19,276 nt of DNA, from the IMG/VR virus record IMGVR_UViG_2617270963_000006; one strand, 5' to 3'. The stretch's first letter is position 1. Every line of letters starts with the position of its first letter. The translations under genes and the position numbers were made by a program. This stretch comes from a virus. Lineage: Duplodnaviria; Heunggongvirae; Uroviricota; Caudoviricetes. The notes below the pieces were generated by a model. The model searched no databases and was not told where the DNA came from. It was given only the letters and a program-made list of their open reading frames with translations. Positions 2,602 through 16,940 of this stretch are shown here, one piece after another.

Positions 2602-3058
2602 AATTATCTCCATTTTCACAAATGAACTTTGTTGATGCGGTGCCTGGTGCCTCCAGGTGGCGTTAACCAGTTAACAATTAACGCCGGGTCAGGGGACGAT
2701 GACTTTCCGTGACATCCTGTCGGTTTAACTGTTCCGCGTGCGCTGAGCCGCATTCACCGCATCACAAAATTCACTTTAAAAAGGGCGGACATCAGCAATC
2801 GGCAAACCGATATCCGCCAAGGGTTACACACAGCAATGTTGTTATTCACAACCGGAAGCGCACGGTCGAAGAAATCTAACGACAATCCTTCTATGGGAAA
2901 GAGTCTTCGCCTCGCGCTTTCGTGTAGTACCCTGGCTTTTCAGGGTAATGTCTGTTCAGTAAAGTGAGAGTGCCGGAACTCACCCGTGTCCGGCGCACGA
3001 TCTCCACCTCACCCGTGGAGAACTCCTCAACTACAAACCCCGTAAGGAGAGTGAATTT

Positions 3059-3268
3059 ATGACACAAGAAGAAAAAGTGATGTTTCTGATGCGGCTGGCT
3101 GTCGATACCTACAATACACAATTCAGGGAGAAAGATATACCTCAAAAGGCAGTTCCTGCCGCGGTAGATAAGGGCGGTGCTATTGCCGTATTTTACGATG
3201 CATTTGAATCATTTTTTGATGAAAAACTCGACGCTGTTAGCGACTTCGGAACATCGAGTAATAAATAA
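3059..3268 (+). CDS. hypothetical small protein, 69 aa, opposite in orientation to the surrounding early-left genes
   Basis: ORF track; strong RBS AAGGAGAG 7 nt before the ATG; its 3' end overlaps the 3' end of the convergent minus-strand gene 3237-3596 by 32 nt. Confidence 0.4.
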   Translation: MTQEEKVMFLMRLAVDTYNTQFREKDIPQKAVPAAVDKGGAIAVFYDAFESFFDEKLDAVSDFGTSSNK

Positions 3269-3596
3269 CGTTCATTACGGTTCTTAAACAACAATCAGTG
3301 GGCTTGATGTTGTTCTTTTCAAGCTCACTTGCCATCACTTCCATTATTCTTGCGCTTACACGAATTATTTGGTGGCTGTAAGCGACGCAACTATCGCTGA
3401 TATTGCTGTTTATTTCTATTACTTCATTTTCACTGGCGGCGCTAAATTTGGATATGCCGTTTCCATTGTCCTGTTTCAGTGCTGTTTCCGCTATCCGGAT
3501 GCGTTCCTGCGTTGCGGAATTTGGGCTAAGTCGATAAACCTGTCTGGCATCTTCCAGAAGCAGGGCGATAATGTGCTTCAGTTCTGTTTCATTCAT
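3237..3596 (-). CDS. hypothetical protein, about 119 aa
   Basis: ORF track 3237-3617 (TTG); the internal ATG at 3594-3596 has GGAG with a 6-nt spacer. Confidence 0.45.
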   Translation of the reverse strand: MNETELKHIIALLLEDARQVYRLSPNSATQERIRIAETALKQDNGNGISKFSAASENEVIEINSNISDSCVAYSHQIIRVSARIMEVMASELEKNNIKPTDCCLRTVMNVIYYSMFRSR

Positions 3597-9838: not shown

Positions 9839-10423
9839 ATGACCACTTTTACAAAAGAGCAGTTAATCAGTCATGTTAGTGAAAATGTAAAGGCGATGAA
9901 ATTTGCAGTAAAACAGACAGCATTCAAAAATTCTCTCGAGGCAATTGAGTTGGATTTAGCACTGGCCCTTGTTGCTCAGGCTTCGCTGGAAGCAGAGCCC
10001 GTGCTTTATATGAATCGATTTACCGGAAAGACATTCTCACTGGAAGAGCAACCTGGTGCTGATAAGGAACCGGAAATATACGTGCCGCTATATGCTGCCC
10101 CGCCAGACAGCGCCGCCATGCTTCAGGCTGGAAACTTTCGGGAAAAGAAGGGTTCGTCAACCAATAATTTTCGGGAAATCTCGGAAACGTCAACCAACCA
10201 TCCGGTAACTCTGGATGGTTGGATAAGCTGTAGTGAGCGAATGCCGGATGACGGTCAGCACGTAATTATTTTATGTGATGGCGCATTCGTTCTTTATGCG
10301 CAATATCGAGACGGTGAGTTTTTTGATGTAGTCCGTGATGGTGATGAATTTTTCGAAACACAGAGCCGCAATGTAACCGACTGGATGCCGCTACCAGAAC
10401 CGCCGCAGGAGGTGCGCCAATGA
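9839..10423 (+). CDS. phage protein with a DUF551-type C-terminal domain (Eaa/Ead-like), about 194 aa
   Basis: ATG at 9839 with AAGGAGAA upstream; C-terminal motif VTDWMPLPEPP, which I recall as characteristic of DUF551 phage proteins. Confidence 0.55.
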   Translation: MTTFTKEQLISHVSENVKAMKFAVKQTAFKNSLEAIELDLALALVAQASLEAEPVLYMNRFTGKTFSLEEQPGADKEPEIYVPLYAAPPDSAAMLQAGNFREKKGSSTNNFREISETSTNHPVTLDGWISCSERMPDDGQHVIILCDGAFVLYAQYRDGEFFDVVRDGDEFFETQSRNVTDWMPLPEPPQEVRQ

Positions 10424-10503
10424 TCTGGCCTGAAGCCTTTGCAATTACAGGCGTTGCTATAGCTATTGATTTTTTAGTATATGTTATTTGTCGGTGGGGG
10501 TAA
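10420..10503 (+). CDS. tiny hydrophobic peptide (27 aa, MIWPEAFAITGVAIAIDFLVYVICRWG), predicted single transmembrane helix
   Basis: Not in the ORF track (under 60 aa). ATG overlaps the upstream stop (ATGA); AGGAGG 7 nt upstream. Confidence 0.35.
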   Translation: MIWPEAFAITGVAIAIDFLVYVICRWG

Positions 10504-10538: not shown

Positions 10539-10643
10539 ATGTCGGATGATATATCACTGGCAATGGAAGGTGCGCTGGCTGTTATTGCTGTTGTGGGCGT
10601 TTACTGCCTGGTTGTGTTTTTGATGGATCGACTAGGGAACTGA
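10539..10643 (+). CDS. tiny hydrophobic peptide (34 aa, MSDDISLAMEGALAVIAVVGVYCLVVFLMDRLGN), predicted single transmembrane helix
   Basis: Not in the ORF track. AAGGAGGG immediately upstream of the ATG. Confidence 0.35.
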   Translation: MSDDISLAMEGALAVIAVVGVYCLVVFLMDRLGN

Positions 10644-10774
10644 ATTCATTACGATATGGGAATTCCCATATCGGGTAAAAACGGTTTGCGGTAAAGCGAG
10701 AGTTAAGCAGAATTGCTGCGGGTGCTTGAGGCTGTCTGCCTCGGGCATGCCACCGTAAGGCAGACAGAGAAAAA

Positions 10775-10860
10775 CCCCAGTTAACATTACGCGTCCTGCA
10801 AGACGCCTAACATTAATCTGAGGCCAATTTCATGCTAGACACATGTAGGTTAGCCTCTTA
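10775..10860 (-). ncRNA. sok: candidate Sok-like antisense RNA of the hok/sok module (position approximate)
   Basis: Inferred from hok-family organisation: the antisense regulator lies opposite the hok leader. No promoter or terminator was pinned down. Confidence 0.3.
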
Positions 10861-10888
10861 CGCGCCGAAAGGCAAGGAGAAGCAGGCT

Positions 10889-11044
10889 ATGAAGCAGCAA
10901 AAGGCGATGTTAGTCGCCCTGATCGTCATCTGTATTACCGTCGTAGTGACGGCACTGGTAACGAGGAAAGACCTCTGCGAGGTACGAATCCGAACCGGTC
11001 AGACGGAGGTTGCTGTCTTCACAGCTTACAAACCTGAGGAGTAA
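10889..11044 (+). CDS. hok: Hok/Gef-family type I toxin (51 aa)
   Basis: MKQQKAMLVALIVICITVVVTALVTRKDLCEVRIRTGQTEVAVFTAYKPEE is nearly identical to chromosomal Hok homologues (HokD/RelF as recalled). In-frame upstream extension from ATG 10832 (track ORF 10832-11044). Terminator follows. Confidence 0.85.
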   Translation: MKQQKAMLVALIVICITVVVTALVTRKDLCEVRIRTGQTEVAVFTAYKPEE

Positions 11045-11111
11045 GAGACCAGGCGAGGGAGAAATCCCTCGCCACCTCTGATGTGTCAGGCATCCTCAAC
11101 GCACCCGCACT

Positions 11112-11134
11112 TAACCCGCTTCGGCGGGTTTTTT
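11112..11134 (+). terminator. rho-independent terminator after hok
   Basis: CCCGC-TTCG-GCGGG followed by TTTTTT. Confidence 0.7.
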
Positions 11135-11253
11135 CACGTACTGTGGTTGTGAATACGATTGGTATTAGGCTATGCTAACAACATTAGCCTGACTAATTTT
11201 GTATTGACTTGATTTTTGTTAAAGAACAGGACGGAGAAGTAAGGGTACACCCA

Positions 11254-11433
11254 ATGAGCTACGCACTAAAAAAACACCCGCGATTGACTATTCCCCCTCG
11301 CGATAAAAGCGTTGTGGCAGCTCCGCGCCCGGCTATCGATGAAAATTGCACTCATCGTGAGCAGGTGAAAAATGCTTTCGATTTCGGTTTTTCTCGTTAC
11401 GAGAAGGCAATGGAAGAACTTTCAAAAGTGTAA
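11254..11433 (+). CDS. putative antitoxin of the Doc-family module (59 aa)
   Basis: Small ORF immediately upstream of the Doc-like toxin, separated by about 18 nt; ATG at 11254 (track ORF begins at a TTG at 11209). Not recognisably Phd-like. Confidence 0.5.
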   Translation: MSYALKKHPRLTIPPRDKSVVAAPRPAIDENCTHREQVKNAFDFGFSRYEKAMEELSKV

Positions 11434-11451
11434 TGATGGGTATTGTGCTCT

Positions 11452-11937
11452 ATGGCTGAGATTGTTGAAGGAGTGCACTACCTTTCGTTTGATGATCTTA
11501 CCGAAATTAATCGCCTTTTAATTGAGCTTCAAACACCAGATGAACCTGTTAGTGTGCTGAGTGTTGATAATTTAAGTTCTTCTCAGTCTCGTCCCAGCAT
11601 GGTTCGATGGTATGAACAGACTAATGACATGTTTGTACTGGCATCAGTATTGATTGAAAGTCTGATTCAGAATCATCCATTTGCTAATGCAAACAAACGA
11701 ACAGCTATGATGGCTGGTTATGTCTTCTTGTTGTTGAATGGCTATGAGTTAACAGCACCAGGCGATGAAATCGTGGAAATGGCAGAGGGACTGGCCTGCA
11801 AAACCTATACTCGAGAAGATCTCGAGAACTGGTTGTGTTATTGGTCTCGTGCGTATGACAGCCGGGAATTATGTAAAACAGGCGCAACTATTGTTTTGTA
11901 TGAAACTATCAAGCTTAAAATAGAACAGCAAAACTAA
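11452..11937 (+). CDS. doc: Doc (death-on-curing) / Fic-fold toxin, about 161 aa
   Basis: Catalytic motif HPFANANKR fits the Doc signature HxFx(D/N)(A/G)NKR. Start is uncertain: ATG at 11452 or TTG at 11443. Confidence 0.75.
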   Translation: MAEIVEGVHYLSFDDLTEINRLLIELQTPDEPVSVLSVDNLSSSQSRPSMVRWYEQTNDMFVLASVLIESLIQNHPFANANKRTAMMAGYVFLLLNGYELTAPGDEIVEMAEGLACKTYTREDLENWLCYWSRAYDSRELCKTGATIVLYETIKLKIEQQN

Positions 11938-11953
11938 AGGTGCTTCTAATGAA

Positions 11954-11976
11954 AATCCGCTTCGGCGGGTTTTGTT
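11954..11976 (+). terminator. rho-independent terminator after the Doc module
   Basis: CCGC-TTCG-GCGG followed by a T-rich tract. Confidence 0.55.
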
Positions 11977-11987
11977 GTATTGGAGTA

Positions 11988-12305
11988 TCATGATATTACT
12001 TGGATCCCGTTTTTCTCTACGACTGAAAGAAGGCGAAGAGCGGCACCTCCCGGCCGTTTTACACCACGTTCCCAGTCTGATATCAGGTTTTTACTGACGT
12101 TGAGGTATCTGGCAAAAACAGGTTGAGACAGATGCTCTCGTTCGCGCAGTGCACGGATCCTTTCCGGAGACATTACCGGCGCTGGCTGGAGACAAGTTTC
12201 ATCGAATTCTCGCATAGTCTGTTTCGTTACTGCGCCGATATCATGAAGCGATTCCATCATTTCATGTACGGATGCAAGCGCATCACTGCGGTAATTTTTA
12301 CTCAT
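11988..12305 (-). CDS. HTH (XRE-type) antitoxin, HigA/MqsA-like, 105 aa
   Basis: C-terminal HTH (LSQPVFARYLNVSKNLISDWERGVKRPGGAALRLL); GGAGG 7 nt upstream; lies directly downstream of a RelE-like toxin ORF on the same strand. Confidence 0.65.
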   Translation of the reverse strand: MSKNYRSDALASVHEMMESLHDIGAVTKQTMREFDETCLQPAPVMSPERIRALREREHLSQPVFARYLNVSKNLISDWERGVKRPGGAALRLLSVVEKNGIQVIS

Positions 12306-12359
12306 TGGGTACCTCCGTAAACTGACCCTGTAGAATCAGTTGTGCCAGTTGTTCATCTG

Positions 12360-12668
12360 TTAGATTGAGTACGTGAGGAGCCCCTTCCGAAATGCACTTT
12401 CCTCAGTAGCGGTTATATTTTCACGTTCATTTTTTGCGTATGCATATACGAAAAAGGCCCTTGTGCCGACGCGATAGAAAATGATTGTGCGATAACCGCC
12501 AGATTTGCCGCCACCGACTCGTGGCAGACGTTGCTTGATAACGCCGTTACCCAGGTTTGCTGAGATAAGCCCGTTATCAGCCTGTTTAACAATTTCGCGC
12601 AGTGACTGGTCGGATATTTTGTTTTTGTGTGCAAATCGCTCAAACCAGGCGTTTTTAAAAATGCGCAT
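12360..12668 (-). CDS. RelE/ParE-superfamily toxin (HigB-like; toxin-first arrangement), 102 aa
   Basis: Segment GGGKSGGYRTIIFYRVGTRAFFVYAYAKNEREN is typical of RelE/HigB-like killer proteins; followed by the HTH antitoxin. Confidence 0.65.
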   Translation of the reverse strand: MRIFKNAWFERFAHKNKISDQSLREIVKQADNGLISANLGNGVIKQRLPRVGGGKSGGYRTIIFYRVGTRAFFVYAYAKNERENITATEESAFRKGLLTYSI

Positions 12669-12772: not shown

Positions 12773-12851
12773 ACGCCAGCAAAATCTGGCGTCGGGATTA
12801 GGAACCCCGGATAGAAACCGCGACAGAGACACGCCGCGAGCGTGTTTTTTA
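12773..12851 (+). ncRNA. candidate small RNA (about 80 nt) with its own promoter and intrinsic terminator, carrying a TTAGGAAC motif
   Basis: Promoter TTGACA (12737-12742), 18-nt spacer, TATATT (12761-12766). Terminator ACACGC-CGCGA-GCGTGT plus T-run at 12829-12851. No ORF. Confidence 0.3.
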
Positions 12852-13013
12852 TTGTCGTATGCACACGCACATCTGAATTATGGTGGGGCGTATAGGGGAG
12901 CTGAAAAGCTCGCCGGTTGGTTTCCCGGTAGTTCCTAACCCTGTACGTCTCGCCACCCGATGATTAGGAACCTGACGGTGGTGATAGTTTAGAAACCACT
13001 CGAGGGCGTCATT

Positions 13014-13685
13014 ATGACAACTCAAGTTTCTGTTGAAACACTCTCCACGATTACTTACAAGCAGATCCCCGTTATCACTACCGAACTTTTGGCGCACCTT
13101 TACGGCACAGAAGCTATTCGTATTCGCCAGAATCACCACGAAAACAAAGGTCGTTTCATTGAGGAAAAACACTTCTTCAAACTTGAAGGTGAAACTTTAC
13201 GTGAGTTCAAGCACAGAGTAGCTTTTAACTACTCTGTGAAAATTGCCCGTAACGTTCGCTCCCTCATCCTATGGACAGAACGCGGCGCAGCCCGTCACGC
13301 AAAAATGCTCGAAACTGATCAGGCGTGGGAGGTATTCGAAAAACTGGAAGACTGCTATTTCAGCCAGGGAAAAACAGCACCAACCGAACAGCAGCCGCAG
13401 ATTCAGCCACAATTCACAGCCGAAGAAATCATCCTCCTTTGCTACATGCAGCTCTGGATGGAAAAAGCCCAGGACCTCAGCAAACACCTGTATCCCATTA
13501 TGAAAGAGCTGAACTCCTCATACACGAACAAGCTGTATGACATTGCGTTTGAGACCATCTACATGGTGACGAAGAACAGAGACGCGCTACTAAGGGAGGT
13601 AACACGTCTCGACATGTCAAGTTCCATTATCCAGCGGGCCATGCCAATGCTGAAAAGCCTGCGGGCAAGACAATTTGAATTCTGA
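13014..13685 (+). CDS. phage antirepressor-like regulator (ORF6N/Rha-type N-terminal domain), 223 aa
   Basis: N-terminal segment (ITYKQIPVITTELLAHLYGTEAIRIRQNHHENKGRFIEEKHFFKLEG) resembles ORF6N/Rha antirepressor domains; GAGGG RBS; terminator follows. Confidence 0.6.
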   Translation: MTTQVSVETLSTITYKQIPVITTELLAHLYGTEAIRIRQNHHENKGRFIEEKHFFKLEGETLREFKHRVAFNYSVKIARNVRSLILWTERGAARHAKMLETDQAWEVFEKLEDCYFSQGKTAPTEQQPQIQPQFTAEEIILLCYMQLWMEKAQDLSKHLYPIMKELNSSYTNKLYDIAFETIYMVTKNRDALLREVTRLDMSSSIIQRAMPMLKSLRARQFEF

Positions 13686-16649: not shown

Positions 16650-16885
16650 GTATCCGTTCAACGGGAATGTTACATACCTCACAATTAAGTCAGTTGAATG
16701 TTGTCTGCCCGGATGAGAATTTGTTAGAAAAAACTGCATGGTGAATCCCCCTGAGCGGAGGGGCGACTGGTGACGGTATAATCTCTGATTATCAAAACGA
16801 GAATGACGCGGGTTTAGTGGCACCGGGCTGAACTCACCGGGAGGCACCCGGCACCATGCAATGGCACATAGCGCCACTCTCCAGC

Positions 16886-16940
16886 CCCTCTCCGGAGGGG
16901 CTTTCTTATGGACAAAAAAGCCCGCGCTGGGAGACGCGGG
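16886..16940. terminator. back-to-back hairpins: plus-strand CCCCTC-TCCG-GAGGGG then T-rich; minus-strand terminator (A-run, then GCCCGCG-CTGGGAGA-CGCGGGC)
   Basis: Read directly from the sequence; orientation of function uncertain. Confidence 0.4.

Follow-up and report, generated by a model that had tools for sequence, protein, structure and literature searches.

Does an intact hok reading frame inside a prophage mean that a complete and working type I toxin-antitoxin locus is present? The question is raised by a 19,276-nt stretch of viral DNA (IMG/VR record IMGVR_UViG_2617270963_000006, Caudoviricetes), which as a whole is called the window below. From its letters alone the original prediction proposed a complete hok/sok-type locus with a functional killer toxin at positions 10700-11134. 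This range spans the hok -10 box through the terminator, with only the presumed -35 box (~10686-10691) left outside. We consider it highly probable that the locus is a HokD/HokW-type hok/sok module, an RNA-controlled membrane toxin carried as a moron in a lambdoid Escherichia coli prophage, which by its sequence would use a mechanism like that of plasmid R1 and phage Sp5. The evidence comes from the sequence elements, the predicted folds, covariation among homologues, identity of the Sok -10 box with that of sokW, and the prophage context.

The toxin and its upstream reading frame

The toxin gene encodes a 51-aa protein (MKQQKAMLVALIVICITVVVTALVTRKDLCEVRIRTGQTEVAVFTAYKPEE) containing the LCEVRIR motif, as proposed earlier. 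It is located at 10889-11044 (+) and matches Pfam HOK_GEF (PF01848) with 83.9 bits against a cut-off of 22 (E-value 5.6e-24), covering profile positions 1-42 of 42. For the Hok/Gef family the features looked for were a hydrophobic helix at the N terminus, the conserved Cys of LCE(V/I)R and, close to the C terminus, either a Cys or a Tyr open to editing; the toxin has Cys15, Cys30 (in LCEVRIR) and Tyr47, with the TACG context of Tyr47 lost. The NCBIfam models were dropped for subfamily assignment, as the scores of the toxin were below the curated cut-offs: 46.7 bits versus 73 for NF007279 and 39.5 bits versus 89 for NF007290 (HokA).

Public records show how common such a locus is. The 551 nt around hok have 99.8% DNA identity to annotated prophage loci of E. 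coli chromosomes, a resemblance far beyond chance. A match to this region was observed in 4717 of 5426 complete E. coli genomes, where the gene is annotated as a Hok family or HokD toxin, and in 101 phage records, including Stx phages, mEp460 and induced prophages. NCBI lists the exact 51-aa protein, with Lys48, for 198 contigs as 'type I toxin-antitoxin system Hok family toxin', and the locus is thus already known; the Glu48 counterpart of the protein is named HokD and is present on at least 1000 contigs. We have here an ordinary, already annotated locus, whose family is thoroughly known and whose setting is familiar as well. What is new in detail is its departure from the family consensus, which occurs at three sites only.

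Some records outside E. coli carry similar sequences. Actinobacillus phage vB_Apl-pPE4 (PP818812.1) has an E. coli-type hok locus with 93% DNA identity, which is unexpected in a phage of Pasteurellaceae. GTDB matches on tiny contigs labelled Acinetobacter (L096) and Xanthomonas (L098) look like contamination.

The in-frame upstream extension named in the original prediction is present as well: a mok-like open reading frame (ORF) of 70 aa starts at ATG 10832 and stays open through the hok start. To see how usual this arrangement is, one can turn to the related loci, of which 119 were collected from IMG/VR and GTDB genomes; extraction of positions -200 to +270 around the hok start left 101 distinct homologues. 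The mok start lies at -57, in frame with hok, in 80 of the 101; it was found at -58 in 6 and at -56 in 9. Phage records annotate the mok-like ORF as MokW, and the in-frame extension also occurs in hokW of Stx2 phages. An in-frame mok is the norm of the HokD/HokW clade and not a peculiarity of this locus; its interpretation as a 1-nt deletion relative to R1 was rejected given the 80 homologues, hokW included, with the same arrangement.

Both Shine-Dalgarno (SD) sequences are in place. That of hok, AGGAG, is invariant in the alignment that includes K-12 hokD (alignment A1). The SD of mok has two alternative partners, ucb in the closed form of the RNA and dcb in the open form, with canonical pairs in 93-96% of the alignment cells. 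Other reading frames in the range, among them a minus-strand ORF at 10632-10787 (51 aa), received no support, and they overlap conserved RNA elements.

Predicted folds of the hok messenger RNA

The long structured leader of the original prediction was borne out by two lines of evidence. Rfam RF01794 matches positions 10720-10894 (+) over the full model (1-157) with 110.3 bits, the gathering score being 59 (E-value 1e-24), and the predicted 415-nt mRNA folds with -174.3 kcal/mol (z = -7.5 versus 100 shuffles). The match runs along the hok strand as far as the hok AUG, which means that RF01794 represents the leader of hok rather than the short Sok RNA; use of this Rfam 'sok' match, which spans the 157-nt leader, as evidence for the antisense RNA was rejected. 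By homology, the mRNA would start at 10720 and end at 11134.

In the minimum free energy (MFE) fold, the closed form, tac is paired with fbi, nucleotides 10776-10780 of ucb are paired with the mok SD region (10818-10823), and the 3' hairpin stands 5' of fbi. The same closed, untranslatable architecture is known for R1 hok mRNA (PMC9841398). For a 3'-truncated RNA with the consensus G10774 an open form of R1 type is predicted, in which the tac stem joins 10720-10727 with 10772-10778, the mok SD/dcb helix joins 10820-10824 with 10853-10857, and the Sok-target hairpin appears. The ucb box changes partner between the two folds, from the mok SD in the full-length RNA to tac in the 3'-truncated RNA. 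The loop of the target hairpin, CUAGACA, starts with a YUNR-type CUAG, while conservation of its stem is moderate (63% canonical). At the 3' end the intrinsic terminator expected from the original prediction was found, with its stem, UUCG loop and T run (11113-11134).

Comparison of the homologues argues for these helices. Standard pairs were observed in 93% of cells for tac/fbi, 96% for the tac stem, 93% for ucb/SD, 96% for SD/dcb and 99% for the 3' hairpin. In a control, where the pairing partner was slid by 1-3 columns, the scores were much lower: 39-60%, 26-70%, 22-40%, 22-78% and 50-68%, respectively. Compensatory changes among the 101 loci were seen at pair 10723:11103 of tac/fbi (TA in 80, CG in 14), at 10734:10765 of the 5' hairpin (AT 68, GC 14, GT 5, TA 5), at 10779:10819 of ucb/SD (AT 86, GC 9) and at 11059:11066 of the 3' hairpin (GC 69, AT 27), where pair 11056:11069 covaries too. 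The fbi element is both conserved and covarying.

The predicted antisense Sok gene

Opposite the mok start region there is, as far as sequence can tell, a Sok gene with promoter and terminator. The predicted RNA begins with 9 single-stranded nt at its 5' end, followed by a long hairpin and the U tract (GGGGUUUUUCUCU), and its fold has an energy of -30.4 kcal/mol (z = -5.1). The -35 box is conserved in most homologues and is identical in hokW. The -10 box is the very sequence that has been probed by experiment in sokW: primers YO-421/YO-422 change TAGGTTA of the sokW plus strand to CCGGCTC in a 'pro-less' construct, and cells with this construct lost their protection against the growth arrest caused by HokW (PMC8621323). 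Complementarity of sokW to the hokW leader extends over 71 nt (PMC8621323), a length that fits a Sok RNA running from 10840 to about 10770.

All parts of a hok/sok-type type I module can thus be pointed out in the DNA, the completeness claimed by the original prediction holding at this level: the toxin, mok, tac/fbi, ucb/SD/dcb, the Sok promoter and terminator, and the 3' terminator. The coordinates are collected in Table 1.

Table 1. Features of the hok/sok locus, with positions in the window
Feature	Position	Strand	Basis or remark
Presumed hok -35 box TTGCGG	10686-10691	+	presumed from sequence; 16 nt upstream of -10 box
hok -10 box CAGAAT	10708-10713	+	6 nt upstream of predicted +1 G10720
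Predicted full-length mok-hok mRNA, 415 nt	10720-11134	+	RF01794 start, terminator end
tac element GGGUGCUUGAGG, 5' end of mRNA	10720-10731	+	pairs with 11094-11106 in MFE fold
5' leader hairpin	10732-10767	+	Rfam structure, full-length fold
ucb / anti-SD box AAACCCCAG, also 3' arm of tac stem; holds rare A10774	10772-10780	+	
mok SD GAGG	10820-10823	+	8 nt upstream of ATG 10832
Sok-target hairpin, CAUG/CAUG stem, loop CUAGACA	10831-10845	+	Rfam structure, truncated-mRNA fold with G10774
mok-like ORF, 70 aa, in frame with hok	10832-11044	+	ATG 57 nt upstream of hok start
Predicted Sok antisense RNA, ~71 nt	10840-10770	-	fold; ends predicted
Sok -10 box TAACCT	10847-10852	-	identical to sokW (+ strand TAGGTTA)
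dcb box GCCUC, partner of mok SD in open form	10853-10857	+	pairs canonical in 96% of cells
Sok -35 box TTGCCT	10870-10875	-	read from sequence; 17-nt spacer to -10 box
hok SD AGGAG	10875-10879	+	read from sequence
hok toxin gene, HokD-type, 51 aa	10889-11044	+	Pfam HOK_GEF, HokD/HokW identity, exact NCBI protein
Tyr47 codon context TACA	11027-11030	+	TACG motif lost, Glu48Lys
3' hairpin, presumed protective 3' end of processed mRNA	11052-11073	+	strong fold, 99% canonical
fbi element CCUCAACGCACCC	11094-11106	+	12 bp with tac, one bulged C (CCUCAA-C-GCACCC)
hok intrinsic terminator	11113-11134	+	7-bp stem AACCCGC/GCGGGUU, UUCG loop (11113-11130), T run to 11134

Comparison with known hok loci

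Of the alignments suggested as a check, that with K-12 hokD (relF) of the cryptic prophage Qin shows 47 of 51 toxin residues in common. From the hok SD through the coding sequence, the 3' hairpin, fbi and the terminator, the two loci are nearly identical (alignment A1), and both reside in lambdoid prophages. However, in K-12 relBE truncates the locus directly 5' of the hok SD, and this copy lacks the promoter, tac, ucb, the mok start and Sok; judged by the alignment, the locus in the window is the untruncated form of the K-12 one. At the C terminus the two differ again, K-12 hokD having TACG and Glu48 where the window has TACA and Lys48.

A characterized prophage relative is hokW-sokW of Stx2 phage Sp5 (933W-type), with 91% DNA identity over 441 nt and 43 of 51 toxin residues (84%) shared. 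Its 70-aa mok-hok is likewise in frame, and its tac, its fbi and both hexamers of its Sok promoter are those of the window. Experiments have shown hokW-sokW to be a type I toxin-antitoxin system, with toxicity of HokW and antitoxin activity of Sok (PMC8621323). The differences are in the three rare sites, where hokW has the consensus (T10708, G10774 and TACG) and the window departs from it; in the 3' end past fbi, where hokW has no counterpart of the terminator sequence; and in location. In Stx phages hokW sits near the int/att end, while hok of the window is situated between replication and nin genes, and these different positions suggest that the module moves within lambdoid genomes. In Stx2 converting phage I (L121), the hokW locus was found at 3001-3441, near the attachment-site end.

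In plasmid R1 the mok reading frame starts 58 nt upstream of hok and out of frame. The R1 hok/sok locus (parB) is a plasmid addiction system, whereas the window has its locus on a prophage, with mok at 57 nt and in frame. The likeness to R1 lies in tac/fbi, ucb, the mok SD/dcb and the CUAG target loop (PMC9841398, RF01794), as well as in the Sok promoter inside the mok 5' region and in the 3' processing described for R1 (PMC9841398). HokW is 44% identical to R1 Hok (PMC8621323), and the toxin of the window is similarly distant from it. The hokB/sokB locus of K-12 belongs to the same toxin family and has a Tyr codon in TACG that is recoded to Cys by TadA (PMC5630033, PMC12214031). This editable codon is number 29 in hokB versus 46/47 in hokC, hokD and hokE; the Tyr of the HokD-type toxin is at the C-terminal position.

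Three rare substitutions and their predicted effect

Over 469 aligned positions of the 101 homologues, the window departs from a base present in at least 85% of the sequences at three sites only. These changes, along with two further observations, weigh against the reading of the locus as a working module of R1 type.

The first change, C10708, turns the hok -10 box TAGAAT, present in 93 of 101 homologues, into CAGAAT and spoils the first T; it is common only to the window and E. coli TOE17. The second, A10774, stands where 96 of 101 homologues have G. In the tac stem this leaves a C.A in place of the C10725:G10774 pair, flagged as non-canonical by Rfam, with a predicted loss of ~6 kcal/mol in the 5' domain (from -34.2 to -28.0 kcal/mol). 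In the processed RNA the canonical tac stem is predicted to form with a probability of ~0.9 if the base is G and of at most 0.08 if it is A, and the balance between the open and closed forms is predicted to move by ~3 kcal/mol towards the closed one. In R1, every substitution of the base opposite this position of the tac stem abolished toxicity (PMC9841398). A shifted and weaker tac stem (GGGU:ACCC) is predicted in its place. The same nucleotide belongs to ucb too, and in Sok it turns the G:C pair at the base of the terminator into G:U and lengthens the U tract.

The third change, A11030, makes TACA from TACG, which removes the canonical TadA motif and replaces the otherwise invariant Glu48 by Lys. 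TACG is retained in 99 of 101 homologues, and an exact 69-mer with TACA was found in 3 of 5426 complete E. coli genomes. It is known that TACG is the recognition motif of TadA and that the Tyr of K-12 hokC, hokD and hokE is edited to Cys (PMC5630033); with TACA, canonical editing of Tyr47 is not expected. The predicted loop context of the Tyr47 codon is retained.

The two further observations concern promoters and the behavior of chromosomal loci. A consensus promoter scan of both strands returned no sigma-70 site, both promoters being poor matches to the consensus. As evidence of absence the scan was rejected, given that CAGAAT and TAACCT fall below its rule of four matches in six hexamer positions; conservation of the presumed hok -35 region among homologues is poor. 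A simple terminator scan missed the hok terminator as well, probably since the stem absorbs two T residues. Identity of the promoters and the terminator was settled by homology with sokW and by folds, not by scanning. Finally, according to the summary of a preprint, chromosomal hok loci tested earlier gave no post-segregational killing.

What do the three substitutions mean for the toxin? Their positions in named elements are suggestive only, since most of the 440 nt are functional in some sense; for this reason a claim of statistical significance was considered and dropped. Near-identical alleles are informative about the history of position 10774: the TOE17 locus equals that of the window over 551 nt except for G at this position, and an allele of O104:H4 type (L005) has A10774 with the consensus at the other two sites. 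Taken at face value, these sequences imply that the position has changed more than once, has reverted, or has been moved by recombination.

It is plausible that the three changes would weaken expression or activation of the toxin relative to the consensus, with the strength of killing uncertain. The original prediction took the intact frame as a sign of a functional killer and named inactivating mutations in the leader as one finding that would speak against it. The frame is indeed intact; given the rare changes in the -10 box, the tac stem and the TadA motif with Glu48Lys, the step from intact frame to functional killer is weaker than it sounds, the killer being plausible and unproven. These changes, of the kind named there, are predicted to weaken the system and are not known to inactivate it.

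One could go further and see in the locus an attenuated or decaying allele, with lower transcription, a blocked tac-stem switch and no recoding of Tyr47 to Cys, a relic tolerated among eroding prophage toxins. This seems to us possible though on balance unlikely. All three departures from the 85% consensus fall into the -10 box, the tac stem and the TadA motif; loss of the tac stem is predicted; the R1 substitutions of the base pairing with the equivalent of 10774, cited above, abolished toxicity; TACG is rarely lost among the homologues; and the neighboring RelE-like toxin is frameshifted here and, at another place, in TOE17. Yet the ORF, both starts, both SD sequences, fbi, the terminator and the Sok gene are all intact, and the Lys48 protein on 198 contigs shows that the allele persists. 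A10774 alone is carried by the O104:H4 lineage, the shifted tac stem GGGU:ACCC could still form, and the energy predictions are approximate. Unedited Hok, moreover, is still toxic on over-expression, and the level of hokD editing in K-12 is only 6% (PMC12214031). In HokB, the edited Cys forms a disulfide and toxicity is raised (PMC12214031).

A milder version, in which the locus is a naturally attenuated hok/sok whose toxin is tuned down by the changes in the -10 box, in the tac stem and ucb (with the Sok terminator), and in the TadA motif, is one that we regard as rather doubtful and put forward tentatively. The difference at 10774 between near-identical alleles hints at repeated change at a nucleotide of the regulatory switch.

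Proposed mechanism and role

With a regulated HokD/HokW-type module as the preferred reading, the mechanism can be outlined by homology with R1 (PMC9841398) and hokW-sokW (PMC8621323). The weak hok promoter would yield a stable mRNA of ~415 nt, closed by tac/fbi pairing and with the mok SD sequestered by ucb; in its full length the mRNA would be inert, neither translated nor bound by Sok. Slow trimming of the 3' end would then remove fbi, so that the 5' end could refold into the tac stem, freeing the mok SD and exposing the target hairpin. Ribosomes that initiate at mok ATG 10832 would unfold the region around the hok start, allowing synthesis of the 51-aa membrane toxin. As long as Sok, a short and unstable RNA with its own promoter, is available, it would pair with the leader, leading to RNase III cleavage and preventing Hok synthesis. 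Once its supply falls, Hok would be made, would insert into the inner membrane and damage it. The ends of the transcripts, their processing, toxicity and the biological role are proposed for the window locus by analogy with these two systems.

As to the role, the most likely one, again by analogy with hokW-sokW, is help with lysis and phage release upon induction. In Sp5, mitomycin C lowered Sok and raised HokW, and deletion of hokW-sokW delayed lysis and halved phage release (PMC8621323). These experiments are the only experimental evidence on the role of a prophage hok/sok, and they point to lysis and release (PMC8621323). The two roles named by the original prediction, stabilisation and abortive infection, are possible.

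Defence against superinfection would work as follows: once a lytic phage has stopped host transcription, the labile Sok would disappear and Hok would kill the cell with the cycle of the invader still incomplete. R1 hok/sok has been implicated in phage defence, as cited in PMC8621323, and hok of the window stands beside two type II toxin-antitoxin modules in the accessory region of the prophage; against this, a 2025 survey states in a section title that hok is not enriched near defence systems, and the allele may be weakened. We consider this role improbable.

Post-segregational addiction is the classic role of plasmid hok/sok. Prophage addiction, in which cells that lose the prophage would be killed by the stable hok mRNA after Sok decay and the element would thereby be stabilised, might draw on this precedent, on the wide distribution of the locus in E. 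coli prophages and on the fourfold enrichment of hok genes in prophages that the same survey reports; still, it is hardly probable in view of the preprint summary mentioned above and of K-12 Qin, which retains hokD without mok or Sok, so that a regulated module is unnecessary for keeping that prophage.

Prophage context and neighboring genes

The location inside a prophage, claimed by the original prediction, was confirmed: the window is lambdoid and collinear with a prophage of E. coli strain TOE17. Upstream of hok the order is RecE, KilR, a cI-like repressor, a Cro-like protein, CII, O-like and DnaC-like replication proteins, DUF1627, DUF977, DUF551 and a 34-aa ORF. Downstream there follow a 59-aa ORF with Doc, a helix-turn-helix (HTH) antitoxin with a RelE-like toxin (on the other strand), an ORF6N antirepressor, NinB, NinE, RusA, NinH and Q. 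By this gene order hok belongs to the accessory region that separates the replication genes from the nin genes, and it is oriented like the early right operon. Among 80 related viral loci of IMG/VR (L002-L081), the common neighbors of hok were the upstream DUF977 gene (42 of 80) and a 27-aa ORF (35 of 80).

Two small hydrophobic ORFs are located just upstream of hok. One of 27 aa (MIWPEAFAITGVAIAIDFLVYVICRWG) at 10420-10503 (+) overlaps the stop codon of the DUF551 gene; the other, of 34 aa (MSDDISLAMEGALAVIAVVGVYCLVVFLMDRLGN) at 10539-10643 (+), is hypothetical in RefSeq.

Directly 3' of hok, at 11254-11937 (+), the 59-aa ORF has no Pfam match and is followed by a 161-aa protein of the Fic/Doc family with the motif HPFANANKRT (Pfam Fic, E-value 2.9e-11); in the near-identical TOE17 record this protein is called a death-on-curing toxin. 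The two genes are probably a toxin-antitoxin pair of type II whose antitoxin is unclassified. At 11988-12668 (-), the gene of a RelE-family toxin (PF06296) is upstream of that of the HTH antitoxin, in a HigBA-like order. A 1-nt deletion near the 3' end of the toxin gene leaves a protein of 102 aa, with the last 28 residues replaced by 7 others, and in TOE17 the gene is broken by a different 1-nt indel near the 5' end; it looks as if decay of the gene had set in separately in each strain. With hok/sok, Doc and the RelE-like toxin there are three consecutive toxin-antitoxin modules at 10889-12668. Such a cluster, with one module visibly decaying, is uncommon: Doc and RelE-like genes were beside hok in only 3 of the 80 related viral loci.

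Two more RNA features were found farther downstream. Rfam matches to isrK (69 bits) and C4 antisense RNA (66 bits) lie in 12773-12960 (+), immediately upstream of the gene of the ORF6N/P22_AR_C antirepressor (13014-13685, +); the region resembles control of the P1/P7 c4-ant or Gifsy isrK type. A full-length match to the small RNA STnc100 (Rfam, 165 bits) at 16708-16913 (+) is downstream of the region syntenic to TOE17 Q and upstream of a 590-aa ORF collinear with the DUF6645 gene of TOE17.

Implications

As an identification the result adds little, HokD/HokW loci being routinely annotated, present in most E. coli genomes and enriched in prophages, with one prophage example characterised. The locus does give a view of the complete ancestor of the truncated hokD locus of K-12. 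If the locus is attenuated, the TACA/Lys48 variant, present on about 200 contigs, would be a natural test of how important Tyr-to-Cys editing is for toxins of HokD type. An allele without the TadA motif and with a weakened tac stem bears on how chromosomal and prophage hok loci stay harmless and on control of toxicity by editing; the allele with three substitutions, its loss of the editing motif above all, is a minor lead for research on hok regulation or on mRNA editing in bacteria.

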